Shown here: in pieces, positions 2,013 through 24,597 of the stretch
How positions within the stretch are numbered: position 1 is the stretch's first letter
Layout: each line of letters begins with the position of its first letter
From: Mycobacteriales bacterium
Lineage (GTDB): Bacteria; Actinomycetota; Actinomycetes; Mycobacteriales; JACQDL01
Reading direction: 5' to 3'
NCBI GenBank assembly: GCA_035476575.1
Contig: DATILL010000065.1
Location: 49,149 to 113,148, forward strand
DNA length: 64,000 bases
Made by a program: the position numbers and the translations under genes
The notes under the pieces: model-generated
The model's input: the letters and a program-made list of their open reading frames with translations, nothing else
Told to the model about the DNA's origin: nothing
The model's database searches: none

Positions 2013-2750
2013 GTGTCTCTCGGTGGACGTACAGGGTATGGCTGCGGCAACGATCGAGTGCAGTCGGCTGTTCAGGATGAGCTGCTGAGCCTGCTGGCGA
2101 CCGCGGCGCGGGCCGCCGGGCTGGCCCGCGAGTCGTGGGTTCGGCAGGGCAGCGGGGACGGCGAGCTGGCGATAATTCCGCCCGGTGAGTCCGAGCCCGC
2201 CGTGGTGGACGGCTTTGTCGGTGAGCTGGCGGGGTTGCTGTATCGCCGTAACCGCGACAGGGCTCCGGCCGACCGCCTGCTGCTGCGGCTGGCCGTCGAC
2301 CATGGCCTGGCGGGGCCGACGTCCAACGGGTTCTCCGGCCGGCCTGTGCTCGCGGTCAGCCGCCTGGTCAACGCCGCCGTGGTCAAGCAGGCCTTGGTGG
2401 CCGCAGCGGACGCCAGCCTGGCGGTGATCGTGTCGCAGCAGGTCTACACCGACCTGATCATCAGCGGCCACACCAGCCTGGAGCCCAGCTTGTTCCGCCG
2501 GGTGCGGGTGCGGGAGAAGGAGCTCGACGAGCACGCGTGGCTGCGGGTGCCCGGCGTCGACGTACACCGGCTTGTCCTCACCCCCGATCCGGCGGCGCCG
2601 GACGGTGGCCCGCCAGACGCTGACCTCAGCCCGCGCGCCCCCGGCGCCGAGGAGGACCGCGGCCCCGCCCCCCGGGTGACCGCCGAGCACAGCAACGTCG
2701 CGATGGGCGACGGCAACGTCGTCGGCACCGGCAACGTCGTACGGCGGTGA
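2013..2750 (+). CDS. Cyclase-fold-like protein (possible class III nucleotidyl-cyclase homology domain) with a C-terminal G/N/V-rich motif; its 5' end is probably frameshifted
   Basis: The motif order YLCLSVDVQG(Y)G .. GDGELAI .. LRLAVDHG .. GFSG .. SRLVNAA .. LAVIVS matches the cyclase homology fold by eye only. The best start is ATG 1981 (RBS GGAGGGG). It encodes MTGTGSFARYLCLSVDVQG in another frame. That frame joins this ORF only if 1 nt is added in the GGG run at 2034-2036. The stop overlaps the next gene's start (GTGA at 2747-2750). Confidence 0.55.
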   Translation: MSLGGRTGYGCGNDRVQSAVQDELLSLLATAARAAGLARESWVRQGSGDGELAIIPPGESEPAVVDGFVGELAGLLYRRNRDRAPADRLLLRLAVDHGLAGPTSNGFSGRPVLAVSRLVNAAVVKQALVAAADASLAVIVSQQVYTDLIISGHTSLEPSLFRRVRVREKELDEHAWLRVPGVDVHRLVLTPDPAAPDGGPPDADLSPRAPGAEEDRGPAPRVTAEHSNVAMGDGNVVGTGNVVRR

Positions 2751-5700: not shown

Positions 5701-8005
5701 CTACACCCATACTCGACACCCCCAGGACGCCGTCGAGGCGCTGACCGCCGCCGTCGACGGCTACCGCCAGATCGCCGAGACACACCCGCACGCCGTCCAT
5801 GCCGGCCTGCGCGCGGCCACCGCGGCACTCGACCACGCCCAGGCGCCCGGCACCGGCGCAACCGCCCACCCGGACCGCGCCCGAACGCAGGTCCGCTACG
5901 CCCGCCGCTGGCACGAAGAGGCCATCCGCTACCCGCTGCCCGGCATCATCATCGTTCTCGGCTGGCGGACCGACCTGGCCGCGCGCCAGCCCCGCCAGCG
6001 CACGGTCCGCGACGATCTCGTCGCGCTGGTCTTCGATCGCAAGCGTGCCGCCACAGCCGCCGAGGCCACCAGCACTGAAGAAGCCGCCACCGGCGTACCG
6101 GCCGCGCCGGCCAGCGCAGCCACCGGGGCGCTGTCCGGCATCGCCAACCGCGTCTCCCAGCTCACCGGAACCCTGACGGCCCGCGTCGCCAGCTCTCGCC
6201 TCCTGTCCCCACTGGTTGCCAACAGCAACATCACCCAGCTTGGCAAGGTCGTCGGCCTCGCCACCGCCCTCACCGCCCTGGTCGCCGGCGTCATCGTCGT
6301 GGCACCCGGCCACCATCCGGCGCCCGCGCCATCCACCGACGTGGCCCAGTCGACCCCAAATCCCACCTTCCCCCCCGGCCCGGGTCAGACCGGCGGGCCG
6401 CTCGTCCCCGGCTCTACGTCGAGCAACGGCTCCACGTCTGGGACCGGCTCTACGTCGAGCAACGGCCCTGGTGTTACGTCGAGCAATGGGGCCGGCTCCA
6501 GCCCCTCAAGCGGCTCTAGCGTTTCAAACCCCGATATTATTAATACACCCTGCGGGCAGAACCAGCACGCCGTTGCCGTTCCCCATGACCCTAGTCCGGC
6601 GACGATGTCCCTATCGAACCCGAACGTCGTGTCGCCCTCGAACCACGGCGTCTCGACGTGGGCAATGTCCCGCGTTGCTCGTATGGAAGCTGTCAGTTTG
6701 ACTGCCCCGACATTCGCCATCCGCATCGACGCCACGCGTCTAGTCTACCGACGCTTCTTCATCCCTGGGGTGACCTCCCACGTGTGGGTGGATTCCCGAT
6801 TGGTACAAACATTACAGCTTGCGCCCGGCTCATATCCGTTCCAGTTTGCTTCTGGCTACTTCGCCGACTTCAGGTTCACGGTGACCCAGGCTGGAAAGAT
6901 CGACTACGACTCCCGTTTCAATAGTTTCCTGTCCGGAACGGGTACCTCCACACTCACTATCTCGGGCTTCTTGGTGACCCTGGATGCCCGTCATCTGTCG
7001 GGCCTTGGCGTCCTGCTCGCTCACATGCCAGCCCAGGGCTGGATCACCTACACGCAGGTTCGCATGGTTCCCGCCTCGCACTACGATGTGCAGAGCCCAG
7101 GTGGCATCGCGAGCTTTTCATTCAAGCTGGGACTCGACGGGCGGTTCTCGTACGGCTCTTCTCTGGACGTGAGAAGCGGTGGAGTCCTTAAAGGAAACGG
7201 GACCTCCTCGTTGGAAATCGTCGGTTATCCTATCCGTATCGACGCCTCACGCCTATCTTATCGGTACTTCCTTATCCCTAACATAACGCTCAAATTCATA
7301 GACGCTCAGACGATACCCACCCTGCAGGTCCTGCCAGGCTCATACGCGTTTCAGTTTGCTTCCGGCTACTTCGCCGACTTCAGGTTCACGGTGACCCAGG
7401 CCGGACTGATTGACTACGACTCCCGCTTCGCGGGTTTCCTCAGTGCGTATAGGTCCACACTTACTGTCACCGGCTTATCGGTGACCCTGGACGCTCGGCG
7501 CCTGTCGGGCCTTGGCATTCTGCTCGCTCACATGCCAGCCCAGGGCTGGATCACCTACGAGCAGGTTCGCATGCTCCCCGCCTCGCACTACTCTGTCCAG
7601 CAAGGCTCGGGCGAGGTCACGAGCTTTATCTTCAAGTTGGGGCTTGATGGAAGGTTCTCGTACGACTCTTCTCTGGACGCCAACAGCGGCGGGTTCCTCA
7701 AAGGAAACGGAACCTCCACCCTAGAATTTCTCGGCTACCCGCTATGTGTTGACGCACGGTCCGCCGGAGGAGCAGGGGTCACCGTCGAGCCAATCCGGGG
7801 AATGCCGTTCAGTACCACGCACGTCCAGCTTGCCTACCTGCTCCCTGCGCCGTACTTCAGACTCAGGTTCAATCCTGGCCATGCTCCGTTCTCCCTCGCA
7901 CCGAATGGCACCTTCAGCTTCGATAGCGCTCTGTCACCCTACTTGCGTCTGGAGAAGCGCGGCGGCATAACTGTGCTCACGGTTCTCGCGCCACCCCCTG
8001 CTTGA
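2747..8005 (+). CDS. NLR-like STAND NTPase (P-loop NOD) with TPR array, one TM helix, Ser/Gly/Thr linker and C-terminal tandem beta-rich repeats (1752 aa)
   Basis: The N-terminal motif SQVAVGDRNVVGDGNVV spans 2804-2854. Walker A is GLGGQGKTQLAG (about 3085-3110) and Walker B-like is LLVVDYAEN. About ten TPR_10/12-like units carry a recurring AAALTNLG..L...GR..EA pattern (about 4500-5800). A hydrophobic helix LGKVVGLATALTALVAGVIVVAP lies at about 6240-6305. An S/G/T-rich linker spans 6400-6530, and five roughly 85-aa repeat units run from 6712 to 8005. Confidence 0.85.
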   Translation: MTGPRGSDPGPASSLVISGSQVAVGDRNVVGDGNVVVDRFVFEGWAHVSEPTTRDEAAGMLLCPPPRPASDALPGGWLRPEAGVITPWRRPEAEDLVQWCVGKPTGLLRLVHGLGGQGKTQLAGQVCAELRQRGWLAGFVELPAPGGGEVPAVGRGAGLPISAWSHRQSEIMTAVRALPKLGVSALLVVDYAENHAAAVGMLLREAVRAATAPTASTPPRILLLSRGEVDWLDDHPCRGWVHPEPILLGPLPGSLWEAGGEFAELDAAEVVAQVWTKAVTQFAAHVESGPLTTTAEPGALAAAALATGTPTSFLTTLDLYADALLRVLDRAQQLAGPAEAGASRPGGDPISGILAHERRVVAQAFAAAGVDLDGYERDRAVCVAFLRPAADSTSAADALATLPGLRALPAGQRDRVVGVLARLFPSDGGENVWEAPRPDRLTDTHLLRVAQAARSGKDFDDYVVAVCGGDDRQLAGHTARTLLRALSTPGAAVWYPVGLRRVEGSITALARAHPGGYVPALVALDPVRFEDEILDTLDVRRTAAGSQPLPIEPVEDIDSELRRIGATTSRLRIAVAVSRRLVEATRPAGTAEDDPVEVARHADQLVGLSRRLAEAGSLGEAVGPAREAVKWYRPLFDGDPETYRQALAAAVTNLGSRLADDGAPAAALAAAEEAVTLRRELAETGSHEHQVDLASALHNLGLRLWDAEEVDRAVAPAGEAVTLLRALAAADPAEQARLAVVLTSLAQIHAATGSPVQAVAAAREAVAIMRRLAEANPDGYLPGLAAALVALSAHLSPPAGRPRMSRPVREAVRLAAEAVETCRQLAVVNPLAYEPDLAAALTNLGLRYATAGQATEAVTATEQAVDIRRRLAGHDSNRHRADLAASLSNVALQVGSTRRRADALAPAREAVEVYGQLQEELPSARSDLAAALTNLGYLLAATGRDDEAIAPTAQAVATYQQLLADQPQLVQRIYLAEAQYNLGLHYTHTRHPQDAVEALTAAVDGYRQIAETHPHAVHAGLRAATAALDHAQAPGTGATAHPDRARTQVRYARRWHEEAIRYPLPGIIIVLGWRTDLAARQPRQRTVRDDLVALVFDRKRAATAAEATSTEEAATGVPAAPASAATGALSGIANRVSQLTGTLTARVASSRLLSPLVANSNITQLGKVVGLATALTALVAGVIVVAPGHHPAPAPSTDVAQSTPNPTFPPGPGQTGGPLVPGSTSSNGSTSGTGSTSSNGPGVTSSNGAGSSPSSGSSVSNPDIINTPCGQNQHAVAVPHDPSPATMSLSNPNVVSPSNHGVSTWAMSRVARMEAVSLTAPTFAIRIDATRLVYRRFFIPGVTSHVWVDSRLVQTLQLAPGSYPFQFASGYFADFRFTVTQAGKIDYDSRFNSFLSGTGTSTLTISGFLVTLDARHLSGLGVLLAHMPAQGWITYTQVRMVPASHYDVQSPGGIASFSFKLGLDGRFSYGSSLDVRSGGVLKGNGTSSLEIVGYPIRIDASRLSYRYFLIPNITLKFIDAQTIPTLQVLPGSYAFQFASGYFADFRFTVTQAGLIDYDSRFAGFLSAYRSTLTVTGLSVTLDARRLSGLGILLAHMPAQGWITYEQVRMLPASHYSVQQGSGEVTSFIFKLGLDGRFSYDSSLDANSGGFLKGNGTSTLEFLGYPLCVDARSAGGAGVTVEPIRGMPFSTTHVQLAYLLPAPYFRLRFNPGHAPFSLAPNGTFSFDSALSPYLRLEKRGGITVLTVLAPPPA
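6712..7745 (+). repeat. Intragenic tandem duplication (about 510 bp / 170 aa, two copies, each made of two roughly 85-aa sub-units; a fifth divergent unit follows to 8005)
   Basis: The string cagtttgcttc(t/c)ggctacttcgccgacttcaggttcacggtgacccagg occurs at 6842 and at 7352, an offset of 510. The protein blocks FAIRIDATRL..TLTISG/FLVTLDARHLSG..SLEIVG repeat as YPIRIDASRL..TLTVTG/LSVTLDARRLSG..TLEFLG. The region is visibly AT-richer than its surroundings. Confidence 0.9.
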
Positions 8006-8339: not shown

Positions 8340-9452
8340 CTACGCGGCGGGTAGCTGCCAAATGTGGTCAGTGTCGAGCCGGACGAGCTGCTGGTCGTGG
8401 CGGATAGTGAGCAGGTAGGCGTCGTAGCTGGGTTTGCCGAGGTGCTCCCATTCGGAGTGGGCGGCCTCGACCTCGTCCCAGAGCCGGCGTGGGCCGTTCT
8501 GGGTGACGGTGCCGGCGGGGGTGATATGGGCGCGCGAACCGTCAGGGTGGCTGAGGTACAGGTCGGCCAGGTCGTTTCCGCCGTTGGCGTAGCTCAGGCT
8601 GGGCAGCGCGATCGAGAGGTGGAAGCGAAACGGTCCGTCGTACACGGCGGTGCTGGGCAGGTTCGCCTGACGGGATGGGCCGGCGGGCTCGGCCGGCGAG
8701 TGAGGGGCCGGCCCGGGCCGAGTGGCCGCCGTCCCGCGCAGTGGCATGAAGTATGCCCCGGACAGGAACCGGCCGGCGGCGCGGTCACCGTCGACCTCCA
8801 GCAGGGCCAGGCCGCTGGCGATGGGCGCGAGTATCTTCCCGCCGGGCCGAGTCTGCGCGAGCCATGCGGGCGGGACGCGGGTCAGGCCGCAGGTGGCGAG
8901 GATCCGGTCGTACGGCGCGCGAGCTGGGTAGCCGTTGGCGCCGTTGCCGCTGCCAATGAGCGGGTGGTAGCCAGCCGCTGCTAGCCGCTTTCGCGCAGCG
9001 GTGCAGAGGCCGGGGTCGATGTCGATGCTGGTGACGAGGTGGTCGCCGAGGCGATGGCAGAGCAGCGCGGCGGTGTAGCCGGTACCGGTGCCGACCTGCA
9101 GCACCCGGTGCCCGTCGGCTACGTCCAGGTCGTGCAGCATCGCGGCGACCAGGGATGGCATGGTGCCGGAGGAGGTGACGCTGGCGGGGGTGATCTGGGT
9201 GATCAGCGTGCTGTCGCGGTAGACCGCGGCCAGCCACTCCTGCCGATCCTCCACTCGCGTGCTGTCGACCAGACGATAGCCGGGCTGAGCGTAGAATCGC
9301 GGGACAAGCAGGTGCCGTGGTACCGCGGTGAAGGCCGCCTGCCACGCGGGGTCGGGCAGCGACCCATCAGCGACGAGCTCGGTGACCAGCGCCTTCCTCA
9401 GTTCTGCCGCCAGCTCTGTCGCGTCACGCGGTTGTGCGGCTGGACCGTTCAC
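8340..9452 (-). CDS. RiPP-associated O-methyltransferase, protein-L-isoaspartate O-methyltransferase (PIMT) homologue with a C-terminal extension
   Basis: A PIMT-like N-terminal half (AFTAVPRHLLVPRFY) and a SAM-binding GxGxG motif (VLQVGTGTGYTAALL) are present. The preferred start, GTG 9452, overlaps the ATP-grasp stop (GTGA). The tracked ORF begins further upstream, at 9524. Confidence 0.8.
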   Translation of the reverse strand: MNGPAAQPRDATELAAELRKALVTELVADGSLPDPAWQAAFTAVPRHLLVPRFYAQPGYRLVDSTRVEDRQEWLAAVYRDSTLITQITPASVTSSGTMPSLVAAMLHDLDVADGHRVLQVGTGTGYTAALLCHRLGDHLVTSIDIDPGLCTAARKRLAAAGYHPLIGSGNGANGYPARAPYDRILATCGLTRVPPAWLAQTRPGGKILAPIASGLALLEVDGDRAAGRFLSGAYFMPLRGTAATRPGPAPHSPAEPAGPSRQANLPSTAVYDGPFRFHLSIALPSLSYANGGNDLADLYLSHPDGSRAHITPAGTVTQNGPRRLWDEVEAAHSEWEHLGKPSYDAYLLTIRHDQQLVRLDTDHIWQLPAA

Positions 9453-10444
9453 GGCTGTTCCATGAGCAGGTCGGCGATCGACGCGGAGATCGGTATGCCA
9501 GTCCGGTATTCCAACCAGGCCCACTGCCCGGCCGGGTTCACGTCCACCAGCAGATGCCGGCCGGTGCCTTTCTCGACCACAAAGTCCAGTGTGGCGAAGT
9601 GCAGCCCGAGGTGCTTGAGCAGCCGTGCGACGCCGAGCGACTCCGGCTCGGGCAGCTCGCCGATGCGGTAGTCCAGGTCGGCGTAGTGAGCTCGCCAGTC
9701 CAACAGGTCCCGACCGGTGGCCGAGCGGATCTCAACCGCGAACATCTGCCGACCGACGACGGTCACCCGCAGGTCATGGTCTTTGTCGATGAGCTGCTGG
9801 AAGCAATGCCCGGTAGCTCGTATTCCGGGATCTTCCCAGCGCCCGGTAGGGACCTCGGTGACGTACACGACTCTGCTCGGCCGCCCGTGCTTGTCACGGA
9901 GACCGCGTCCGTCCAACGGCTTGTACACGATCCGGCCGCCCACCTCCGCGGCAAACGGCGGCACATCCTCGGGCCGGTTGGTGATCAAAGTGGGCGGCAC
10001 GACCAGACCGCAAGCGCGAGCGGCCGCCAGGTTGACCGGCTTGGACTCAGCCCCTTCCACCGCGGCAGGGTCGTTGACCAGGCGAACAGGTAACGACCGC
10101 AGGACTCCCCACAGCGCGTGACGACCCTGCCGCGCGCACCATTGTCGCTGCTCGGCGGGCAGCGCCTCGGCCGGCCGGACGTCACCGGCTCGGCGCCAGT
10201 ACACCGATCGGAGTCGGGTCAGGTCGACCTCCCGGAGGCCCCACATCGACCCAGACCAACCCTCACCCTTCTCGGCGGCGCCCAAGGTGGCGGTCAGGGA
10301 CAGCCCTGCTGGGAAGTGCGCGCCGTCGATGCGTGCGAAGCTCACCCCCCGCTCCAACAGATGCCGGATGACGTGGTCTGCGGTCGGGTCGACATCGGCG
10401 GTGACAACCAGGACGCGAGGGCTGTCGGGCATGGGTGACGTCAC
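9449..10444 (-). CDS. ATP-grasp ribosomal peptide maturase (graspetide omega-ester/amide ligase)
   Basis: 331-aa ORF with ATP-grasp-type motifs (IVYKPL, FQQLIDKDHDLRVTVVG, LDFVVEKGTGRHLLVDVNPAGQW). It lies between a small precursor ORF and the methyltransferase. The start could be GTG 10444 or ATG 10432. Confidence 0.8.
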   Translation of the reverse strand: MTSPMPDSPRVLVVTADVDPTADHVIRHLLERGVSFARIDGAHFPAGLSLTATLGAAEKGEGWSGSMWGLREVDLTRLRSVYWRRAGDVRPAEALPAEQRQWCARQGRHALWGVLRSLPVRLVNDPAAVEGAESKPVNLAAARACGLVVPPTLITNRPEDVPPFAAEVGGRIVYKPLDGRGLRDKHGRPSRVVYVTEVPTGRWEDPGIRATGHCFQQLIDKDHDLRVTVVGRQMFAVEIRSATGRDLLDWRAHYADLDYRIGELPEPESLGVARLLKHLGLHFATLDFVVEKGTGRHLLVDVNPAGQWAWLEYRTGIPISASIADLLMEQP

Positions 10445-10450
10445 GTTGCC

Positions 10451-10699
10451 TTAGTCGTGCGCGGGGTCGGTGTCGACGGCGAGTGGGTCCTTGCCGTCGG
10501 GGTTGGTTTGCGCGGTGCAGGTCGCCACCATCGGCGCGACCTCGTGTAGCGGCCGACCATCCGGCAACACCGCGATCTGCTGGTCCGGGCAGAGGAAGGC
10601 GGCGGACAACACGGACCCATCAGGGTCGGCTGGGACCGGCAGCGCGAACACCAACCCCAACGGCGGACAAGGCTGCACATCGACGGTTATCGGATCCAT
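10451..10699 (-). CDS. Graspetide precursor peptide (82 aa); predicted core ..ATCTAQTNPDGKDPLAVDTDPAHD
   Basis: ATG 10699 is preceded by GGAGAGGAG. The Thr- and Asp-rich C-terminus surrounds an Asp-Gly dipeptide. The gene sits 6 nt upstream of the ATP-grasp gene. The 268-aa tracked ORF (to 11257) is treated as an upstream read-through artefact. Confidence 0.7.
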   Translation of the reverse strand: MDPITVDVQPCPPLGLVFALPVPADPDGSVLSAAFLCPDQQIAVLPDGRPLHEVAPMVATCTAQTNPDGKDPLAVDTDPAHD

Positions 10700-10949
10700 G
10701 GAGTCTCCTCTCCTGCGGCCAGATCTTATCCGGACGAGGCATGGTTTCTCACCACCTGGTCGGCACGGAAGTGGCTCGCCGTCCTCACGCGGCCGTTTAG
10801 CTACGACGAGCAACCGGCCGATAGGGCAGTTTCTTGAAGACCGAGACCGATATTGTCCGCGGTGCCGTGCGTCAGCCCGTGTTCGATGAAGGGTATGGGT
10901 GCAGAGCCGATCGAGATAGTTGGTCTGCTGGTGTCCGGTCTGTCTGCCG

Positions 10950-11253
10950 CGGGCGTGCGCCGGGGGCGGGTCGCGGCGTGGCAGACTCCACCTCATGTTG
11001 CGCTGGATAACCGCGGGGGAGTCGCACGGCCCCGCGCTGGTCGCCGTACTCGAGGGGCTGCCGGCCGCGGTGCCCGGATGAGCTTCGAGCGGGACGAGGT
11101 CGAGCTGACCGGCGGGGTCCGGCACGGGGTCACGATGGGCGGCCCGGTCGCGATCCGGGTCATGGCCGTCGACCCGGTCGACCCGGACGAGCTCGCCAGC
11201 CTGGCCCGCAACGCCCCCCTGACCCGGCCCCGCCCCGGCCACGCCGACCTGGA
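10950..11253 (+). pseudogene. aroC: Decayed duplicate of the aroC 5' end plus about 40 nt of upstream leader
   Basis: The nucleotide sequence is near-identical to 12072-12470, apart from two internal deletions. Read from ATG 10995 it gives [28 protein letters not shown] and then a stop. Confidence 0.85.
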
Positions 11254-11454
11254 ACATGTGGGCGCGGGCCTATCCGCCCCGGCCGGCAGGAGATCCCGTG
11301 CCTGGTCCGGGACGGCGACGTCGTCCCGGACTGCACCACCTCGTTTCCGCAGGTCAACGGGGGGTGGGACGGTGGGACAGTTCTTGTAGGTCGGCGCTGT
11401 CCCACCTCCGCTACGGACATGCGACACTGGCCAGGGACAAGGAACGGAGGTGCG

Positions 11455-12115: not shown

Positions 12116-15349
<3,234 letters not shown>

Positions 15350-16039
15350 CCCACCCGCACGGCTCAGCCGCCACCGGCAGTCCGGGGCGGCACGGGGTGA
15401 GAAACCCTGGCCGCCTATCTCTCCTACCGCAACTCGATGAAGGTTGGTCCGCGTCGACGCGGGCGCGGCGGCGTAGGGACGCAGCCGAGACGGCTGTACG
15501 GCGTAGCCTCGACGGGCCAAAAGACTAGGCTTCTACGAACCGAGGACACAGCTTCTGCCAAGATTTCCCAATGCGCACCGCGACGGCCGCAGATCGTGCT
15601 TGCCGCGCGGCTTCCGCACCGGCGGTGACGCCAGCCTCCGTCTCGCAGCCCATGCCTGGGCGCCGACCGCTAGAGCCGGTAGGCCTGCACCTGCACCCGT
15701 GCCCTTGGCGATTACAGCCGTCGCCACGCTCGTCTCCAGGCACGGCGAGCTGACCCGTGTCGGTCACGCCGGTCTGGTGGGTCTTGCCCATGTCGGTCCC
15801 CTTCCTCCTGGTCTTCCTGACCTTCTTGGCGGATCACCCGATAACCGCCATACGGCAGGTTGCCGGTGGGGAACCGCTGCCTCATTTCCGAAAGTCCGGA
15901 CAACCTCCATGGCGTGCCCGCCACGGGGGCATCGCCACCTGGCGCCTGGTGGCTCCTTTCTTGGCGGCAGCGGAGAGAACTAAATTTCAGAAAACGTGGT
16001 TCTCAACGACAACCGACCGCCACCCTAGGGGGAGACGGC

Positions 16040-16774
16040 ATGGCGGCGCGACAGGAGATAAGACTTGAACTACTGGGTGTCTTTCGGCTTCGGTACGCAC
16101 AGACCGCCGTTGTCCTGCGCCCAAGCTCGCGCCGTCTTATCGCGCTGCTGGCCGTTACCGGAACTCAGGCACGGTTGGACGCCGCCGCGCGGCTGTGGCC
16201 GGACCTGCTGCAGGCCCGAGCCGCGTCCAACTTGCGCACGGCGGCCTGGCGGATCCGGCAGGACGCGTGTGGGCTCCTGGTCAGCGAGGGCGACGTGCTG
16301 CGGCTTGAGGAGCTGAGCTGCGACCTCACGGAGGTACGGGACTGGGCGCGCCGCACGGTGGCCGGTGAGCAGCTTAGCCACCTCCCTGAGCACGCGGCGG
16401 CGGAGCTGCTGCCCCGGTGGAGCGACGAGTGGCTTATCGAGCCCCGCGAAGAGCTCCGGCTCCTGCAGCTGCACGCGCTTGAAGCATTAGCGCAGCGACT
16501 CCTCATGGCTGGTCGGCTCGCTGAGGCATGCACTCACGCGCTGACCGCCGTGATGATGGACCCACTACGCGAAAGCGCTACCCGGCTGCTTATCGAGATT
16601 CATTTGCGCGAGGGCAACACTCTGGACGCCGTCCGGAGGTTCCACCGCTTTGAGGAGCTGCTCGACCAAGAGCTCGACGTTGCGCCCAGCCCCGCGATCA
16701 CCTCTCTGGTGGCTCCCCTTATTACGTCGAAGCGTGCGGCGGGGGTTGACCCGCGAAGGCTCCGCCGGACCTGA
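16040..16774 (+). CDS. SARP-family regulator (OmpR-type winged helix plus bacterial transcriptional activation domain)
   Basis: The protein starts at ATG 16040 (MAARQEIRLELLGVFRL..). A BTAD-like helical region is present (LLIEIHLREGNTLDAVRRFHRFEELLDQELDVAPSP). It lies immediately upstream of the lanthipeptide genes. Confidence 0.75.
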   Translation: MAARQEIRLELLGVFRLRYAQTAVVLRPSSRRLIALLAVTGTQARLDAAARLWPDLLQARAASNLRTAAWRIRQDACGLLVSEGDVLRLEELSCDLTEVRDWARRTVAGEQLSHLPEHAAAELLPRWSDEWLIEPREELRLLQLHALEALAQRLLMAGRLAEACTHALTAVMMDPLRESATRLLIEIHLREGNTLDAVRRFHRFEELLDQELDVAPSPAITSLVAPLITSKRAAGVDPRRLRRT

Positions 16775-17009
16775 GGCTCAGCCACCCTCCGTGGCCGCCG
16801 ACCGCACCATGTGCCCGATAACTCCGTTCTCCGGCAACCCGTTCATCAACGCGTCGACCACTCGGCGTCGGCGCGGCTGCGACGGCATCGAGGCATCGCC
16901 GCGGCGCCCGCGCGGTGAGCTCCCGGCGCGCGAGGAGCCAGTCGACCCACGGGTGGGGAACGTAGCCCGTGCCATGGTCCTGGTGACGCACTCGCAAGGG
17001 AGGGGTCGA

Positions 17010-17372
17010 ATGGCCGACGGCGTGGACCTCGCGCATTTGCAGGAGCTCGAGCAGCGGCTCGCCACGCTCGAGGCACAGTCAGGCCAGCCATCAGGCGGCA
17101 GTGAACAAGGATCCGGAGGTGTCGGAATGACCAGCGGTCAAGGCCAAGCCCCAAGCCCAGAGCAACAAGGGCTTATGCAGGCGTTCTTGCAAGGGGCCAT
17201 GGCGGCCCAGGCGCTCGCCCAAGCGGCGGCACAGCAGGCGGGCCAAGCGGGCCAGGCGGTCGTCGGCGCGCAGGGCGGTGCAGCTCCAGCGGGGTTCACG
17301 AGCTACGACTCCATCTTCTGGTGCAGGAGCCGGTTCATGTGCAACCCGCAGTCAATCTCCTGCTTCTGCTGA
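17010..17372 (+). CDS. Lanthipeptide precursor (120 aa); C-terminal core ..FTSYDSIFWCRSRFMCNPQSISCFC
   Basis: ATG 17010 follows a GGGAGGGG RBS. The leader opens with an amphipathic HLQELEQRLATLEA segment and continues as a long Q/A/G-rich stretch. The last 25 residues contain 6 Ser/Thr and 4 Cys. The kinase and LanC genes lie directly downstream. Confidence 0.75.
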   Translation: MADGVDLAHLQELEQRLATLEAQSGQPSGGSEQGSGGVGMTSGQGQAPSPEQQGLMQAFLQGAMAAQALAQAAAQQAGQAGQAVVGAQGGAAPAGFTSYDSIFWCRSRFMCNPQSISCFC

Positions 17373-17539
17373 GGACGAGAAGAGGCACCTGAGCCGGGCG
17401 GGGCGTCGCGGCCCACGCCATGCCCTGCGCATGCCGTGTGCGGCGCTCCCCTGGCTTGGTCCTTGCGCGCAGCCGGCGAGGAGTGCGGCCCAGTGCGGAA
17501 TGCGGCCAGTGCGGAATGCGGCCCAGTGAGGAGTGGACG

Positions 17540-18700
17540 GTGACGGACAAGCTGCTGACCGAAGCTCACGGAACCCTGACCGAGACTGAGGTCATCCCAT
17601 ACCTGCGCGAACGCGGTCTCGTCGACGGCGCCAGCGTCGTCGACGGCGACATCCGCGTTCTCGACGTGTCGCGACGGAACCGGAACTTCCGCGTGCTCCG
17701 CTCCGCGGGACCGTCGTTCCTGCTCAAGCAGGGCGTCGCGCGGGACAGCTTCAGCGCTGTTGCCCGGGAGGCACGTGCTTATGAGCTGTTCGGCCCGTTG
17801 CCCCACAGCGTCGGGGCGGGATCGTCGCCAGCGTTTCGGCACGCGCCAACCGCGTACGCATACGACGACGAGCGCGACGTGCTGGTCCTGGAGCTCGTGA
17901 CCGGCGTGGAGAACCTGCGCGTCCGGCACCGGCGCGCGCGCCGCCCGCCGCGAGACGCCGCTCGTGCCGTCGGGCGGGCGCTTGCCGCGCTGCACCAGCT
18001 TGTGCCGGCGACGGTCGACCTGGCCACGGCGCAGCGGCTGCTGGGGGCCGGCGAGCCTGGTGTCTTGTCGGTGCAGCGTCCGGGGCTGAGCATGCTGCGC
18101 GACTTCAGCAGCGCGTGCGTTGACCTGGTGCGGATGGTCCAGGCGGCGCCCGACGTCCCCGAGCTGCTCGCCGGCCTGCGGCAGGACTGGCGCACTGACA
18201 CGCTGATTCACCATGACGTCCGCTGGGACAACTTCCTGCTGCCCCTTCCGCGCGCGCGAAATGGCGCACGCGGCCGGCGTGAGGTCATGCTCGTCGACTG
18301 GGAGACCGCCGCCCTGGGCGACCCCTGCTGGGATGTCGGCGCGGTGTTTGGTGAATATCTCGGCGACTGGCTCAGCTCCGTCCCGGGTGTGGCAGGAGAG
18401 CCGCCAGAGCGGTTCCTGCATTTGGCGCGCTGCCCGCTGGAGTCGGTGCAGCCAGCCGTCCGGTCGTTCTGGTCGGCCTATGTCGGGCAGGCCGGCCTGG
18501 CAGCGGGACAGGCCAGCGAGCATCTTCTCCGGTCAGTCCGGTACTCCGGGCTCAAGCTGGTTCAGTCTGGCCTGGAGCAGGTGCAACGGTCCGCCCGGTG
18601 GACCGTCTGCACCGTGTCCTTCCTGCAGGTCGGGGTCAACATCCTGACCAGGCCGGAGGAGGCTGGCGCTGTGCTGCTCGGGTTGGGAGGCGTGGCGTGA
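17540..18700 (+). CDS. Aminoglycoside-phosphotransferase-like kinase (LanK-type dehydration kinase candidate)
   Basis: GTG 17540 follows a GAGGAG RBS. The catalytic loop is HHDVRWDNFLL and the metal-binding segment is LVDWETAALGDPCWDVG. Its stop overlaps the next gene's start. Confidence 0.75.
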   Translation: MTDKLLTEAHGTLTETEVIPYLRERGLVDGASVVDGDIRVLDVSRRNRNFRVLRSAGPSFLLKQGVARDSFSAVAREARAYELFGPLPHSVGAGSSPAFRHAPTAYAYDDERDVLVLELVTGVENLRVRHRRARRPPRDAARAVGRALAALHQLVPATVDLATAQRLLGAGEPGVLSVQRPGLSMLRDFSSACVDLVRMVQAAPDVPELLAGLRQDWRTDTLIHHDVRWDNFLLPLPRARNGARGRREVMLVDWETAALGDPCWDVGAVFGEYLGDWLSSVPGVAGEPPERFLHLARCPLESVQPAVRSFWSAYVGQAGLAAGQASEHLLRSVRYSGLKLVQSGLEQVQRSARWTVCTVSFLQVGVNILTRPEEAGAVLLGLGGVA

Positions 18701-21120
18701 CCAGCCATGTCGACCGCCTCGACGAGGCGGTGCGCGCGGTGCGGATCGTGTCGTCGACGTCCTTCACCTGGTTCGGCGTCCGGTCGCCCGCCCCACCGGC
18801 CCGGCTCCGGTCCATGTTTACCCCCGAGGTCGCTCGCGCCCACCTGCGCCTCGGCCTCCGTGACCGGCTTTACCAGGACTTTTACTGCGCGGGCACGGCA
18901 CGGCCCTCCCCGTCGCAAGACTGGCACGCCGGCCGGCCCAGTGACCGGATGGCCCTCGCGATGTCCCGCGCCAACGGCGGCCGCGGCACGTGGGAACCGG
19001 GCTGGGTGGTCCGCACCGTCGAAGAGGGGCTGTTCGCGGTGCGCCGCAACGGCCTGGAGCTGTGGGTACGGCCGCAGGACTGCCGCACCGACGCTGGGAC
19101 GCCGGCTTCCGGGCACGAGGTAGCGGTCCGCCTCCCCAAGGAGTCGTTCGAGCTGGCGCCCGGCTACTACTGCGCCCTCAGCGACGCGCCCTTTCCGTGG
19201 GATGGCGACGGCGTCCTGGTCCGGGTGTACCTCAACCTGCGACCCGACCAGGCGGTGCGTGGCGTCGGGGCGCTCACCGGCCGGCTCAACGCCGCTGACG
19301 TGCCGTACCGGTTGAAGGTGCTCAACGACGAGCAGAGCTACGCCCGGTGTGACACCGCGGTGCTCTACCTGCGGCAGCAGGATGTTGCCGTCGCCGTTGA
19401 GCCCCTTGCCCACGCCGTCAACGACCTCCGCGCGGCGTTGCGGCCGGCAGTGCCGGCGATGACCAAGGCGCTGGTGCCGGGGGTGGGGCTGGCCGAGGAC
19501 CCGGGATCCGCCGGTGACAGCTTCGGGCAGCACCGCTGCGCGCTGGTCGCCGACGGGTTGCTGCAGGCGCACGAGGTGGGCAGCAGGTCTCCGCGGGCCC
19601 AGTTGGAGGCAGTCCTGGACGTCTTCCGCGCCGCGGGCGTCGATCCGGAACGGCCTTACCTGAACCCCGGCTCGCTCGACCGCTACGCGCTTCCCGCCCA
19701 GCCCCGCCTCGCCATCCCTGGGTGGAGGCCGGTCCGCGCCGACGGTGCCGGGAGCCCCGACCTCCGGGTGGCCCCCTTGAGCGCTGTCGCGCTCATCGAC
19801 GTCGCGCGCCGGATCGGCTGCCGGCTGACCGCCGACGCCGTCTGGCACGAGGACCGCTGCACCTGGCTCGGGCCTGTTCCAGCGCTGGACGAGCATGGCG
19901 GGCCGGCGCTGGCGCACGGCACCATTGGCAGCGGGCTGTATGACGGCACCAGCGGCGTCGCTGTTTTCCTCGCCGCGCTCGCCGCCACGACGGGCGACCA
20001 GGATGCGGCCCGGACCGCGTCGGCCGCGGTCCGGCAGGCGCTGGGCGCCGCCGGGCACGGCCGCGACGCCCCTGGCCTGTACAACGGCACGGTGGGCGTG
20101 TGCCTCGCCGCCGCGGTCGTGGCCAGGCTCACCAGCGACGGCGCCCTGGCCACGGCTGCCCGAAAGCTCGTAGACGAAGCGCTGTCGCGCCAGCAGGAGG
20201 CGTTCGGGTTCGACGTCCTGTCCGGCTTGGCCGGTGCGGTCGCGGGCGTGCTGACGCTCTCGGCGCTGCTTGCGGACAGCAGCCTGGTCGAGGACGCGGT
20301 CCGGCTCGGAGAGGCGCTGGTCGGCGCCGCCGTTCGCGCTGACGAGGGCTGGTCGTGGCGGCCCGGGACCGGGTTGCGCCATCCCGATCTGACCGGCCTG
20401 TCGCACGGTGCCGCTGGCGCGGGCTACGCGTTGCTGGAGCTCTTCCGGGTCACTGGCGACAGCCGGTGGGCGTCGGCGGGCCGGGAGGCTTTCCGGTACG
20501 AGCGGGCCTGGTTCTCGCCGGACGCGGGCAACTGGCCGGACTTTCGCGACGAGAAGGGGCGGCCGTCGCGGCGGCGCCCCTTGGCGTTCCGCACCCAGTG
20601 GTGCCACGGCGCACCAGGGATCGCCCTCACCCGGCTCAGGGCCGCCGAGCTCCTGGGCGACACAGCGCTGGGCGAGGAGGCGGTCGTGGCGCTGTCAACC
20701 ACCATCGAGAACACTCGGGCGGCCCTGCTCGATGGGACTTTGGGCTTCAGCCTGTGCCACGGGCTGGCCGGCAACGCGGACGTGCTGCTCGACGGCCTGC
20801 CGCTGGCGGAGGAGCGGGACCTTCCCGCCCGGGCGTTGGTGGCGGAGATTGCCGCGGCCGGACATGCCCGGCACGCCGTCGGCGAGCAGCCGTGGCCCTG
20901 CGGGCTGTCTACGCACGGAGGCGAGAGCCCCGGCCTCATGCTTGGGCTCGCGGGTATCGGCTACCACTACCTCCGCCTCGCCTGTCCCGACGTCGTCCCG
21001 TCCGTGCTGCTGCTGCGGCCGGAGCGCACGGCCGAAGGCATCGCCGCGCTCGCGGGCGAGCGGGCCAGCCGCGCTGCCACCACCAGCCGCGCTGCCACCA
21101 CCAGCCTTGCGGGCACGTAA
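18697..21120 (+). CDS. Fusion protein: about 400-aa N-terminal domain (candidate HopA1-like phospho-Ser/Thr lyase) plus a C-terminal LanC-like cyclase
   Basis: The GTG start overlaps the kinase stop (GTGA). The C-terminal half has the LanC signatures GLSHGAAGAGYALLELF, TQWCHGAPGIALTRL and FSLCHGLAGNADVLL, so the Zn ligands are present. The N-terminal assignment is inferred from three-component (class V) systems and was not recognised directly. Confidence 0.7.
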   Translation: MTSHVDRLDEAVRAVRIVSSTSFTWFGVRSPAPPARLRSMFTPEVARAHLRLGLRDRLYQDFYCAGTARPSPSQDWHAGRPSDRMALAMSRANGGRGTWEPGWVVRTVEEGLFAVRRNGLELWVRPQDCRTDAGTPASGHEVAVRLPKESFELAPGYYCALSDAPFPWDGDGVLVRVYLNLRPDQAVRGVGALTGRLNAADVPYRLKVLNDEQSYARCDTAVLYLRQQDVAVAVEPLAHAVNDLRAALRPAVPAMTKALVPGVGLAEDPGSAGDSFGQHRCALVADGLLQAHEVGSRSPRAQLEAVLDVFRAAGVDPERPYLNPGSLDRYALPAQPRLAIPGWRPVRADGAGSPDLRVAPLSAVALIDVARRIGCRLTADAVWHEDRCTWLGPVPALDEHGGPALAHGTIGSGLYDGTSGVAVFLAALAATTGDQDAARTASAAVRQALGAAGHGRDAPGLYNGTVGVCLAAAVVARLTSDGALATAARKLVDEALSRQQEAFGFDVLSGLAGAVAGVLTLSALLADSSLVEDAVRLGEALVGAAVRADEGWSWRPGTGLRHPDLTGLSHGAAGAGYALLELFRVTGDSRWASAGREAFRYERAWFSPDAGNWPDFRDEKGRPSRRRPLAFRTQWCHGAPGIALTRLRAAELLGDTALGEEAVVALSTTIENTRAALLDGTLGFSLCHGLAGNADVLLDGLPLAEERDLPARALVAEIAAAGHARHAVGEQPWPCGLSTHGGESPGLMLGLAGIGYHYLRLACPDVVPSVLLLRPERTAEGIAALAGERASRAATTSRAATTSLAGT

Positions 21121-21166
21121 CCAGCCGCCTCGGCGGCACCCGTCTAGCATCACCTTGGGGAGCGTC

Positions 21167-22609
21167 ATGTACAGCGAGGTCCTAGCCGGGGCACTGCCCA
21201 CCACCCACCGCGCGATGGTGATCGTCCGGCTCCGTGCGGGGTCGGCGGCAGGCCAGGCCGCCGCGGAGGCCGAGCCTACGGGCGGCCTGTCCATCCTCGA
21301 TGAGCTCGACCGGGCCGGCCGGGTGAGGGCGGTCCTGCCGTTGACCCCCGCCGCGGCAGGGCCGGAGGGCGCCGGCGGTGCGATCGCCGCGCTGTCCACC
21401 ACTGCGCAGCAGGGGGACCTGGGCGCGGCGAGCATCATCCGCCTCACCGACGACGAGGACGTGGCCCGGCTGCTTCCGGCCCTCAACGACCACCGCGACG
21501 TTGAGTACGCCAGCCGCGTCCCGGCCCGCTGGTTCGCCTCCGCGACACCGCCGGCTCAGGCCGTCGAGCACCGGATCGCCGGCCTGGAGTCCCGCATCGC
21601 GGGCCTTGAGGCAGCCCCCCAGCCTTCTCCGGTGTGGAACCTACAGAAGGTCCTGTGGGACCAGGCGGTCCGCGAGCTCGGGACCGAGGAGGTCGGGAAC
21701 GTGCGCGTCGGCGTCCTCGACACCGGCGTCGACGACCAGCACCCTGACCTGGCCGACCGGCTGGCCCGCTACGTCCACGCTGGCCCGTCCACCTCCGGGC
21801 AGGTGGTGTCCGACCAGGACGTCGTCGGGCACGGCACGCACGTCGCCGGCACCATCGCCGCCCGGTTCAACCAGGCGATCGGGACACGCGGGATCTGCGC
21901 CACCCGGCTGTCAGTATGGAAGATCTTCGACGATGTCCCCGACTACATCGAGACACGGGGCGTGTACTGGTATCTCGTTGACCCGGTCCTGTACCGGCGG
22001 GCGCTCGCCGACTGCGCCGAGCAGGTCGACGTCGTCAACCTCAGCATTGGCGGCACCGAGCCGCCCGACCCGCAGGAGAGTGCGCTGTTCCGCGTGCTCG
22101 GCGAGCGCGGTGTCACGGTCGTGGCGGCGATGGGCAACGAGCGCGGCCTGGGCAGCCCGACGTCGTACCCGGCCGCCATCCCGGGTGTGGTCGCCGTCGG
22201 GGCCACCGCGCCCGACGACAGCGTGGCCTCCTTCTCCAACGCCGGCGACTACATCAGCGTGTCCGCGCCTGGGGTCGCTATCTGGTCCACGGTGCCCCAC
22301 TATCCTGGGCAGGTCGGGTTCCATGCCGACGTCCGCGCCGACGGCCAGCCCGAGCGCGGCGCGCCGGTGCCGCGCGAGGTGAACTACGCGGCATTGAGCG
22401 GTACGTCCATGTCCGCGCCGCATGTGACGGCGGCGACCACCCTCCTGCTGGCGAGCAGCCGCCAGAAGCGCGATCCGGAGTCGGTCCGCTACCTGCTCAT
22501 GGCCAGTGCTGATCATGTGGGGAGCATGCAGGGCCAGGTGTGGAACCGGGACATCGGCGCTGGTCGGCTCAACCTGCGCCGGCTGATCCTCGCCGGCCGG
22601 CACCTGTAG
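21167..22609 (+). CDS. Subtilisin-like S8 serine protease (candidate leader peptidase)
   Basis: The catalytic triad motifs VGVLDTGVDDQHPDL, GHGTHVAGTIAA and SGTSMSAPHVTAA are present. ATG 21167 follows GGGGAG. Confidence 0.85.
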   Translation: MYSEVLAGALPTTHRAMVIVRLRAGSAAGQAAAEAEPTGGLSILDELDRAGRVRAVLPLTPAAAGPEGAGGAIAALSTTAQQGDLGAASIIRLTDDEDVARLLPALNDHRDVEYASRVPARWFASATPPAQAVEHRIAGLESRIAGLEAAPQPSPVWNLQKVLWDQAVRELGTEEVGNVRVGVLDTGVDDQHPDLADRLARYVHAGPSTSGQVVSDQDVVGHGTHVAGTIAARFNQAIGTRGICATRLSVWKIFDDVPDYIETRGVYWYLVDPVLYRRALADCAEQVDVVNLSIGGTEPPDPQESALFRVLGERGVTVVAAMGNERGLGSPTSYPAAIPGVVAVGATAPDDSVASFSNAGDYISVSAPGVAIWSTVPHYPGQVGFHADVRADGQPERGAPVPREVNYAALSGTSMSAPHVTAATTLLLASSRQKRDPESVRYLLMASADHVGSMQGQVWNRDIGAGRLNLRRLILAGRHL

Positions 22610-22616
22610 CACCGGC

Positions 22617-22874
22617 ATGGCAGCGCCAGTTGTCGCGTTCACCATCGCGGCGGATGTCCCCGCGGAGGCGCAGGGTGCGGTGATCGCGGCGGTCAGGTCC
22701 GTTGACGGGGTGGTGGACGCCTACCGCCTCTCCCCGGAGTCGAGCATTCCGGAGGTACGGCGCATGTGCGCCGCGGCCCTCGCCAACGGTGCCGATCCGC
22801 GCGCGGTGGCCGCACGCGTGCGGGGCGTCCCCGGCGTCGAAAGCGCCGACGTGCCGCCTGCCCGCGGGATCTGA
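22617..22874 (+). CDS. Hypothetical 85-aa protein at the end of the lanthipeptide island
   Basis: The ORF has GC-biased third positions. It starts 8 nt after the protease stop. No motif was recognised. Confidence 0.4.
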   Translation: MAAPVVAFTIAADVPAEAQGAVIAAVRSVDGVVDAYRLSPESSIPEVRRMCAAALANGADPRAVAARVRGVPGVESADVPPARGI

Positions 22875-22920
22875 CCTGTGGACAACCGGCCTTGCTGGCC
22901 GGGCGGATACCGTGGCAGCC

Positions 22921-24018
22921 ATGCCTGCCACCCACATCGCCCGGCGGGACCGGCTGCGGGAGATCCTCCGCGAACGCGGGCTGGACGCCGCCCTGGTCAC
23001 CAACCTGGTCAACGTCCGCTACCTCACCGGTTTCACCGGCACCAACGCCGCCCTCCTGGTGTACGCCGACGGCCCGGGCGCCGACCCGGGCGTGTTCGGC
23101 ACCGACGGCCGGTATGACGCCCAGTCGGCCGAGCAGGTGCCGGAGCTGCCCCGGGTGCTCCAGCGGGCCACCGACCAGGCCATGGCCGCCCGAGCCGCCG
23201 CCGACGGCCACCACACGGTCGGCTACGAGTCGCACCACGTCACCGTGGACGGCCTCGCCGAGCTGCGGGCCGCCGCCGAGCAGCTCCGGCTCGCCACCCT
23301 CAACCAAGCGGTCGAGCAGCTCCGGCTGACCAAGGACAACGCCGAGATCGAGCTGCTCCGGCGGGCCTGCGCGATCGCCGACCAGGCCCTGGCCGGGCTC
23401 ATCGAGGCCGGCGGGCTGCGGCCCGGCCGGACGGAGCGCCAGGTCGGCCGCGACCTGGACGGCCGGATGCTGGACCTCGGCGCGCACGCCGTCAGCTTCG
23501 AGACGATCGTGGCCACCGGGCCGAGCTCCGCCATCCCGCACCACCGCCCGGACGACCGTGAGCTGGCCGCGGGCGACCTCGTCAAGCTGGACTTCGGCGC
23601 GCAGTACGGTGGCTACCACTCCGACATGACCCGCACGATGGTCCTCGGCGAGCCGGCCGGCTGGCAGCGCGAGATCTACGAGCTGGTGGCCGCGGCGCAG
23701 CGGGCCGGCAGCGCCGCCGTGGCCGTCGGTGCGGACGTGCGGGAGGTGGACCGGGCCGCCCGCGAGGTGATCGAGCGGGCCGGGTACGGCGAGCGGTTCA
23801 GCCACGGGCTGGGGCACGGGGTGGGGCTGGAGATCCACGAGGCACCGGCGTTGTCCCCTCTCGGCGCCGGTACACTCGCCGAGGCGACGCCGCTCACCGT
23901 CGAGCCCGGTGTGTACCTGCCCGGCCGCGGCGGCGTCCGCATTGAGGACACGCTCGTGGTCCGCGCCGACGGGCCCGAGCTGCTCACCCTCACCACCAAG
24001 GATCTCGTCAGCCTGTAA
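22921..24018 (+). CDS. pepP: Xaa-Pro aminopeptidase (M24 family)
   Basis: The protein starts MPATHIARRDRLREIL. The metal-ligand block SHGLGHGVGLEIHEAP is present. It sits in conserved synteny with efp and nusB. Confidence 0.85.
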   Translation: MPATHIARRDRLREILRERGLDAALVTNLVNVRYLTGFTGTNAALLVYADGPGADPGVFGTDGRYDAQSAEQVPELPRVLQRATDQAMAARAAADGHHTVGYESHHVTVDGLAELRAAAEQLRLATLNQAVEQLRLTKDNAEIELLRRACAIADQALAGLIEAGGLRPGRTERQVGRDLDGRMLDLGAHAVSFETIVATGPSSAIPHHRPDDRELAAGDLVKLDFGAQYGGYHSDMTRTMVLGEPAGWQREIYELVAAAQRAGSAAVAVGADVREVDRAAREVIERAGYGERFSHGLGHGVGLEIHEAPALSPLGAGTLAEATPLTVEPGVYLPGRGGVRIEDTLVVRADGPELLTLTTKDLVSL

Positions 24019-24033
24019 CAGCGAAGGACACCC

Positions 24034-24597
24034 GTGGCCACCACGAACGACCTGAAGAACGGCCTGGTGCTCAACCTCGACGGCAACCTGTGGTCCGTCG
24101 TGGGGTTCCAGCACGTCAAGCCCGGCAAGGGCGGCGCCTTCGTCCGGACCACCCTGAAGAACGTGCTGACCGGCAAGGTCGTGGACCGCACCTTCAACGC
24201 CGGGGTCAAGGTCGACACCGCCACCGTGGACAAGCGCAACATGACGTACCTGTACCGCGAGGGTACCGACTTCGTGCTCATGGACGCCGAGACCTATGAC
24301 CAGATCCACGTCCCGGTCGAGACGGTGGGCACCGCGGCCGACTACCTGCTGGAGAACGCCGACGCCGTGGTCGGCCTGCACGAGGGTGTCCCGCTCTACG
24401 TCGAGCTGCCCACCAGCGTGGAGCTGGTCGTCGAGTACACCGAGCCCGGCCTGCAGGGTGACCGGTCCACCGGCGGCACCAAGCCGGCCCGGCTGGAGAC
24501 CGGCGCGGAGATCGCCGTCCCGCTGTTCATCACCACCGGCGAGAAGGTGAAGGTCGACACCCGCGATGGCCGCTATCTCGGCCGTATCTCGCAGTGA
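24034..24597 (+). CDS. efp: Elongation factor P
   Basis: [33 protein letters not shown]; 187 aa. Confidence 0.95.

Follow-up and report, generated by a model that had tools for sequence, protein, structure and literature searches.

The locus examined here raises the question of whether one gene encodes both the lyase and the cyclase of a lanthipeptide synthetase, whether such a fusion is genuine, and how it relates to known systems. The gene lies at positions 18697–21120 of a 64,000-nucleotide stretch of Mycobacteriales DNA (contig DATILL010000065.1, positions 49,149 to 113,148; hereafter the window). An earlier note on this DNA had described it as a candidate natural fusion of a domain that may eliminate phosphate with a LanC-like domain. 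Our analysis indicates that the overall function is very probably as proposed: the product is LanYC, a bifunctional subunit that unites lyase and cyclase in a two-protein synthetase of class V type, LanK plus LanYC. The architecture itself was already described in 2021 and is abundant in public sequence data, and this gene is a further example, to which we add evolutionary context.

A lyase domain and a cyclase domain in one reading frame

In the window sequence, the gene is a single uninterrupted open reading frame (ORF) of 807 amino acids (aa), with no internal stop codons. It starts with a GTG codon at 18697–18699 that overlaps the TGA stop codon of the kinase gene at 18698–18700 (..ggcGTGAcc..), and the GTGA coupling of the two genes noted earlier is therefore real. 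The GC content at third codon positions (GC3) is 0.85 over the complete open frame 18355–21120, a typical value for coding DNA. The peptide strings quoted earlier from the N-terminal half (GWVVRTVEEGLFAVRRNGLELWV, GYYCALSD, VRVYLNL, YRLKVLNDEQSYARCDTAVLYL and DSFGQHRCALVADGL) were all found in the translation, as were the SHG (H570), WCHG (C636) and CHG (C687-H688) motifs.

Pfam searches identified a HopA1 domain (PF17914, E 1.4e-38) at residues 152–322 and a LANC_like domain (PF05147, E 8.4e-56) at residues 413–772. An AlphaFold2 model built from a 46-sequence alignment showed two compact domains, residues 1–335 and 362–775, with a mean predicted local distance difference test score (pLDDT) of 91.1 and a predicted template modelling score of 0.87. 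The two domains are separated by a segment with pLDDT values of 49–68 in 10-residue blocks spanning residues 331–360, falling below 50 at residues 339–341 and 347–354. According to the model, the N-terminal module is thus shorter than the 400 residues or so first estimated, with about 335 residues followed by a linker of about 25. The C-terminal tail is covered neither by the Pfam domains nor by the part of the protein that homologues conserve. It contains a perfect 18-nucleotide tandem duplication at 21067–21102 (agccgcgctgccaccacc, twice), which encodes SRAATT-SRAATT and is probably the result of a recent slippage event.

The top match to the N-terminal domain in a Foldseek search against the PDB was LxmY (chain 9dk1_B of the LxmKY lexapeptide dehydratase; E 2.5e-16, target TM 0.80), and structures of HopA1 effectors ranked much lower. 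Sequence identity to LxmY is merely 26–28% or thereabouts. Mutagenesis of CaoY, the cacaoidin lyase, has shown that R187 and K219 are essential and R229 important, and Y236 is the conserved counterpart of Y158 in SpvC (PMC9486802). The corresponding residues in the window protein, R176, K207, R217 and Y224, are spaced at intervals of 31, 10 and 7 positions, as compared to 32, 10 and 7 in CaoY. R176, K207 and R217 show no variation among 46 aligned fusion proteins, and at least 90% of these have Y224. Thus, the structural comparison assigned the N-terminal domain to a class V lyase and not to an unrelated function, and the fold match together with the conserved CaoY residues identifies the supposed phosphate-elimination module as a lyase of the HopA1/LanY type.

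For the C-terminal domain, Foldseek returned LicM2, CuvL (class IV), LanCL1/2, MadC and NisC, and sequence searches of the PDB concurred. The best NCBIfam score was to the cyclase region of LanM (TIGR03897, model positions 544–932 only), and NF038150 and NF038151 matched the cyclase region alone, with scores far under their cut-offs. The residues assigned to cyclisation are H570 of the SHG motif as the acid histidine and C636 (WCHG) and C687-H688 (CHG) as the zinc ligands. All of the aligned fusion proteins have C636, and at least 90% have each of H570, C687 and H688. The PF05147 match and the full set of zinc ligands agree with the description of a complete LanC-like domain joined to the N-terminal one. 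Based on the conservation of the lyase and cyclase residues, both halves of the fusion look catalytically competent.

Kinase, precursor and relation to known lanthipeptide systems

The gene directly upstream encodes a kinase of the APH fold (LanK), for which NCBIfam gave NF038156 as the best match (E 1e-28), the model named 'class V lanthionine synthetase subunit LxmK', though with a score under its equivalog cut-off. The sole PDB sequence match was LxmK itself (9dk1_A), in an alignment that includes HHDVRWDNF and VDWE. The start of lanK is uncertain, with candidates at 17420–17540; a start at 17516 gives a protein of 394 aa, as compared to 380–387 aa in relatives.

Upstream of the kinase gene lies a precursor gene, lanA, whose ATG is closely preceded by the ribosome-binding site AAGGGAGG; the identical 120-aa ORF is annotated by NCBI as HSV65869.1. 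The leader contains the motif LMQAFLQG..Q.LA as well as QGGAAP, and the core, AGFTSYDSIFWCRSRFMCNPQSISCFC, has four Cys and six Ser/Thr. Precursors at the same position in two related loci (L081 and L082) align with LanA and have the leader motif L-x-QAF-[LM]-QG...Q.LA and the QGGAAP segment in common with it. The three peptides have a near-invariant core, TSYDS[IV]FWCRSR[FA]MCNPxS[IL]SC[FL]C, in which T97, S101, S107, S115 and S117 and the cysteines C105, C111, C118 and C120 are invariant. The conservation of the precursor suggests that Mycobacteriales have a lanthipeptide scaffold not yet described.

Candidate precursors were also selected at more distant fused loci, by a crude Cys/Ser/Thr filter. 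Several candidates 5' of the kinase gene carry an F-L-x-G leader motif, compare QAFLQG in LanA (L006 4487–4891, L008 4415–4771, L011 4541–4840, L013 4608–4886 and L014 3814–4233; for example DFLSGDIARGHL, EFLSGDIMSGFL and DFLRGDIAAGFL), and this motif may be a family-wide leader recognition element. Other candidates adjoining fused lanYC genes consist of tandem short units containing Cys: L030 4414–4719 (Pseudomonas sp. NPDC089554), L009 4516–4761 and L019 11–142. Their repeats, such as four copies of AKTCKPTRNPCC, GGHSFAC/GGQSFAC and GSARGCG, suggest multi-core precursors.

In the naming of class V systems, the kinase is called LanK and the HopA1-like lyase LanY, while LanX is a second protein of the APH fold that closes aminovinyl-cysteine (AviCys) rings together with LanD (PMC9486802, PMC12291118). 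The label LanX-LanY first given to the fusion was therefore wrong, since LanY is the lyase and LanX an APH-like AviCys cyclase; the protein is LanY-LanC. LanX is absent here, as tblastn found no second APH homologue throughout the 64-kb window. For LanD, the scan covered genes close to the operon and those called in L081 and L082, and showed no flavoprotein domain.

The locus has the hallmarks of class V: a HopA1 lyase with its Arg, Lys, Arg and Tyr residues, an adjacent but separate APH kinase, and an adjacent precursor with Ser/Thr and Cys in the core. It resembles the class Va systems LxmKY (lexapeptide, PDB 9dk1–9dk3) and CaoKY (cacaoidin) in the LxmY fold, the CaoY residues and the LxmK-like kinase. 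However, class Va clusters contain LanX and the flavoprotein decarboxylase LanD, form a C-terminal aminovinyl-methylcysteine (AviMeCys) and have no LanC. The characterised members, for cacaoidin, lexapeptide, pristinin and the triantimycins, lack any LanC, whereas the locus studied here has a LanC domain, with no second APH protein and no flavoprotein seen among the genes scanned.

A closer parallel is class Vb, as known from secondary descriptions. Like SmoK/SmoY/SmoC and SpcC of Streptomyces pathocidini, the locus combines an APH kinase, a HopA1 lyase and a zinc-dependent LanC cyclase and is without LanD and LanX. In those descriptions, SmoKYC is the sole characterised class Vb system, its product carries exclusively lanthionine and methyllanthionine (Lan/MeLan) rings, and the native ring pattern reportedly depends on LanC (Pei et al., JACS 2022, via PMC11186320 and PMC12328550). 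SmoC is a dedicated cyclase that can be omitted from the co-expression, which implies a separate protein (PMC11186320, PMC12328550). The locus thus shares with class Vb a LanC-type cyclase with zinc ligands beside LanK and LanY and the lack of AviCys machinery, but not the stand-alone cyclase; in a comparison by description only, lyase and cyclase form one polypeptide here, unlike in SmoKYC.

The order of phosphorylation, lyase elimination and cyclisation is also that of the class IV LanL (CuvL) and class III LanKC enzymes, and LanL has a zinc-dependent LanC-type cyclase. In classes III and IV, however, one chain comprises lyase, kinase and cyclase in this order, with an OspF-type lyase and a PF00069 kinase, whereas the fusion studied here lacks a kinase domain, the APH kinase being separate and the HopA1-type lyase joined to the cyclase. 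The cyclase region of the class II LanM enzymes is the best-scoring one for the C-terminal domain (TIGR03897, LicM2), but the N-terminal lipid-kinase-like dehydratase of LanM is absent, with no Pfam match to PF13575 (DUF4135).

The same architecture, a HopA1 domain followed by a LanC-like cyclase with a phosphotransferase gene adjacent, was found in genome mining by Eyles et al. (Chem Sci 2021, PMC8153245), in association with precursor Families 11/20 and 22. The authors proposed the fusion as an uncharacterised lanthionine synthetase, based on bioinformatics only; no further mention of such fusions turned up in the literature covered. Neither LanC nor fusions are mentioned in PMC11162475.

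We propose the following pathway, in which the enzymatic activities, the number and topology of the rings and the complex with LanK are predictions. The leader of the 120-aa precursor would be recruited, probably via the kinase, judging from the work on LxmKY and CaoKY, and LanK would phosphorylate Ser and Thr of the core with ATP. The HopA1/LanY domain would then remove the phosphate to leave dehydroalanine or dehydrobutyrine, with K207 as the putative base, R176 stabilising the enolate, and R217 and Y224 assisting. The LanC domain would bind zinc by C636, C687 and H688 and use H570 as the acid, so that the thiols of the four conserved cysteines could react with the dehydro residues and close as many as four (methyl)lanthionine rings. 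Finally, the leader would be removed by the S8 protease. Published work on LxmKY and CaoKY describes a stable heterodimer of LanK and LanY and an AlphaFold 3 prediction that places the leader on the C-lobe of the kinase, and on this basis a 1:1 complex of LanK and LanYC, holding all three active sites, is to be expected.

Several observations weigh against this interpretation. Both the kinase and the C-terminal domain score under the NCBIfam equivalog cut-offs, and are thus distant from characterised enzymes. Certain class V lanthionine rings arise without an enzyme (PMC11186320), and the predicted pathway may not need a cyclase domain. No transporter or immunity gene was recognised within the operon. 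The literature covered, which left out most subscription papers, contained no reconstitution or biochemical characterisation of any fused member.

The non-enzymatic rings also lead to an alternative that we consider unlikely, namely that rings form spontaneously after dehydration and that the LanC-like domain only serves LanY and LanK as a scaffold or chaperone. In class Va peptides, as in the triantimycins, (Me)Lan is documented to form spontaneously and stereoselectively (PMC11186320), and LanY by itself is prone to aggregation and depends on partners to be stable (PMC12141560). However, a pure scaffold would not be expected to conserve C636, C687, H688 and H570 family-wide, and in the split SmoKYC system the cyclase alters ring pattern and stereochemistry, according to PMC12328550. 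The N-terminal domain could, conversely, be catalytically dead and serve only in kinase docking or leader binding, with elimination taking place elsewhere or the product staying phosphorylated. The His and Lys that OspF lyases have are indeed missing from proteins of the HopA1 family (PMC9486802), and LxmY supplies much of the interface with LxmK. We nevertheless find a dead lyase very unlikely, as all four CaoY residues shown or proposed to be catalytic are present at matching spacing and are invariant or nearly so, and the operon holds no other lyase candidate.

Genuineness, distribution and history of the fusion

A further possibility is that the fusion is an artefact of sequencing or assembly, in which a one-nucleotide error in an ATGA or GTGA overlap has joined separate lanY and lanC genes. 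The window sequence derives from a metagenome-assembled genome (MAG), and 50 of 76 related loci have lanY and lanC as two genes, mostly with a 4-nucleotide overlap in which a single indel would fuse them. Yet the three closest relatives (P0001, P0002 and P0003, with 67%, 63% and 52% identity), which come from independent metagenomes, are single proteins of 811–824 aa, each with both Pfam domains. In an exhaustive HMMER search over 1.84 billion cluster representatives (50% identity), the best 150 representatives were assessed; all were full-length fusions (E <= 1e-126) from many phyla, 147 of them with one continuous match across both domains and three with a match in two stretches. The window protein is also placed inside a predominantly fused clade, and its GC3 is typical of coding DNA across the whole open frame. 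In addition, the NCBI locus tags, VLJ59_08205 for the precursor and VLJ59_08225 for the small ORF at the operon end, in steps of 5, leave room for just two genes from the precursor to the S8 protease. An artefact is highly improbable on this evidence, and we conclude that the fusion is not one; the concern that a sequencing error had hidden a stop codon is thereby removed. The same survey, together with the literature mention in 2021 (PMC8153245), does not bear out the view that the fusion is unusual.

Related loci were collected with one genome per GTDB species, which gave 80 loci, of which 76 had both halves and 4 were without a match to the lyase half. Among them are loci from Actinomycetota (Catellatospora, Nonomuraea, Kitasatospora and one Mycobacterium MAG), Bacillota (Firmicutes; Tumebacillus avium) and Proteobacteria (Pseudomonas, Sphingomonas and Undibacterium), and further from Chloroflexota, Acidobacteriota, Planctomycetota, Verrucomicrobiota, Bacteroidota, Cyanobacteria and Gemmatimonadota, as well as one from an archaeal MAG (Nitrososphaeraceae). 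A LanK-like gene is located immediately 5' of lanY or lanYC in 73 of the 80. Where both halves are present, they are fused in 26 loci and encoded by adjacent lanY and lanC genes in the 50 split ones, mostly with an ATGA or GTGA overlap of the lanY stop with the lanC start. The gene boundary in the split loci maps to query residues 335–365 or thereabouts, that is, to the linker of the window protein.

On a neighbour-joining tree of the combined lyase and cyclase sequences, the window protein falls in a mostly fused clade, and parsimony indicates around 7 changes between the fused and split states, a count that is approximate as the tree was built without bootstrap. At least three transitions are backed by reciprocal nearest neighbours of unlike state: L017/L059 (67% identity), L014/L016 (58%) and L020/L018 (52%), as compared to a median identity of 37%. 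At the junction of the fused L017 and the split L059, the linker was too diverged for a DNA alignment and the boundary was compared at the protein level. Thus, lanY and lanC have fused and separated repeatedly and the two states interconvert between close relatives, as is to be expected if a single-base change in the 4-nucleotide overlap suffices. The window gene is the single-chain form of the widespread lanK-lanY-lanC operon, most likely having originated by loss of the 4-nucleotide stop/start overlap between lanY and lanC.

This history bears on the suggestion that the fusion fixes the stoichiometry of elimination and cyclisation. The suggestion is plausible in itself, but probably describes no strong selective novelty, since the orthologues are usually adjacent with a 4-nucleotide overlap and the states interconvert. 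Repeated fusion and fission weaken the idea of a special adaptation, and translationally coupled genes of one complex would achieve nearly the same. A stronger version is that LanK and LanYC form a functionally distinct sub-type of class V, in which tethering couples elimination to immediate cyclisation and thereby gives kinetic control over ring topology, and that the Mycobacteriales operon makes a new four-ring family (core TSYDSxFWCRSRxMCNPxSxSCxC) with a dedicated S8 protease and an 85-aa partner. We regard this as a tentative idea, more doubtful than probable.

Among the known kinase-dependent machineries for lanthipeptides, a natural single-chain lyase-cyclase with a small kinase would be the most compact. 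The genes for precursor, LanK, LanYC and protease together occupy only about 5.6 kb, which is convenient for engineering and for studies of the coupling between elimination and cyclisation. Paired fused and split orthologues, such as L017/L059, permit a direct test of what the gene fusion contributes.

Some members of the family depart from the common pattern. A 5-kb contig assigned by binning to a Nitrososphaeraceae archaeon MAG (L004, CAYTQD010000085.1) carries a complete lanK-lanYC pair; either the contig was misbinned or this is a rare case of a lanthipeptide system in archaea. Four LanY-LanC fusions (P0027, P0037, P0039 and P0125) are longer, with 1063–1219 aa (1115 aa in P0125). The first three were considered as triple fusions of kinase, lyase and cyclase and rejected, as the extra 300–450 aa or so are C-terminal and have no Pfam match.

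Operon organisation and other features of the window

The features of the operon are listed in Table 1. Among the closest relatives, L081 and L082 have the same gene order as the window, with genes for precursor, APH kinase, LanYC, S8 peptidase and the small ORF, and in L083 and the P0001 contig, whose 5' ends are cut, the last four are kept. In each of the three closest relatives, an S8 gene (464–483 aa) comes after that for the fusion, and the translation of the window copy holds the triad motifs DTG, HGTH and GTSMSAPH. The BTAD gene also adjoins the homologous operon in L082/L083.

Table 1. Coordinates of the lanthipeptide operon and of the domains of LanYC in the window.
Feature	Position	Strand	Evidence
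SARP-type (Streptomyces antibiotic regulatory protein) transcriptional activator, BTAD domain; start codon uncertain	15860..16774	+	Pfam BTAD PF03704, E 1.9e-14
Precursor peptide LanA, 120 aa	17010..17372	+	Ribosome-binding site; homologous precursors; NCBI HSV65869.1
LanK, APH-fold Ser/Thr kinase, class V type	17516..18700	+	Pfam APH PF01636
LanY (HopA1-like phosphoSer/Thr lyase) domain, aa 1-335	18697..19701	+	Pfam, Foldseek, CaoY residue spacing
Interdomain linker, aa 336-361, predicted disordered	19702..19779	+	AlphaFold2 pLDDT; lanY/lanC boundary of split loci
LanC-type zinc-dependent lanthionine cyclase domain, aa 362-775	19780..21021	+	Pfam, PDB sequence and fold matches
C-terminal tail, aa 776-807, and stop codon	21022..21120	+	Sequence reading
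S8 subtilisin-like peptidase, probable leader peptidase (LanP-like)	21167..22609	+	Pfam Peptidase_S8, E 4e-43
Conserved 85-aa ORF, operon end	22617..22874	+	Homologues in relatives

The 85-aa ORF gave no significant Pfam or NCBIfam matches. In L081, L082/L083 and the P0001 contig, homologues of 86–89 aa are located 3' of the S8 gene; the copies in L081 (10906–11175) and L082 (10921–11184) are 49–58% identical to the window ORF and have the motifs IPEVRRM and G[IV]ESA. The product could act on the protease, as its partner or inhibitor, or else serve in immunity or as a chaperone.

The operon sits between aroQ, which ends at 15349, and pepP/efp at 22702–24597. In actinobacteria, aroQ and pepP-efp are usually contiguous. 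The position between these genes suggests that the lanthipeptide operon at 15350–22900 is an inserted island. The GC content in 2-kb bins is 0.69–0.74 across the operon, as compared to 0.68–0.75 in neighbouring bins; these ranges overlap and there is no clear compositional signal.

What looks like a second, unrelated cluster for a peptide made by the ribosome and modified after translation (RiPP), a graspetide with a PIMT homologue, is located on the reverse strand at 8340–11257. It comprises an MvdD-like ATP-grasp gene (9449–10444, PF21068), a gene for a PCMT/PIMT-type protein O-methyltransferase directly downstream of it (8340–9524, PF01135, E 1e-28) and an ORF after the ATP-grasp gene without a Pfam match (10451–11257). 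We take this cluster to resemble fuscimiditide-type aspartimide systems. On the forward strand, a very large ORF of 1752 aa extends from 2747 to 8005, with TPR repeats at approximately residues 820–1003 as its sole recognised feature.

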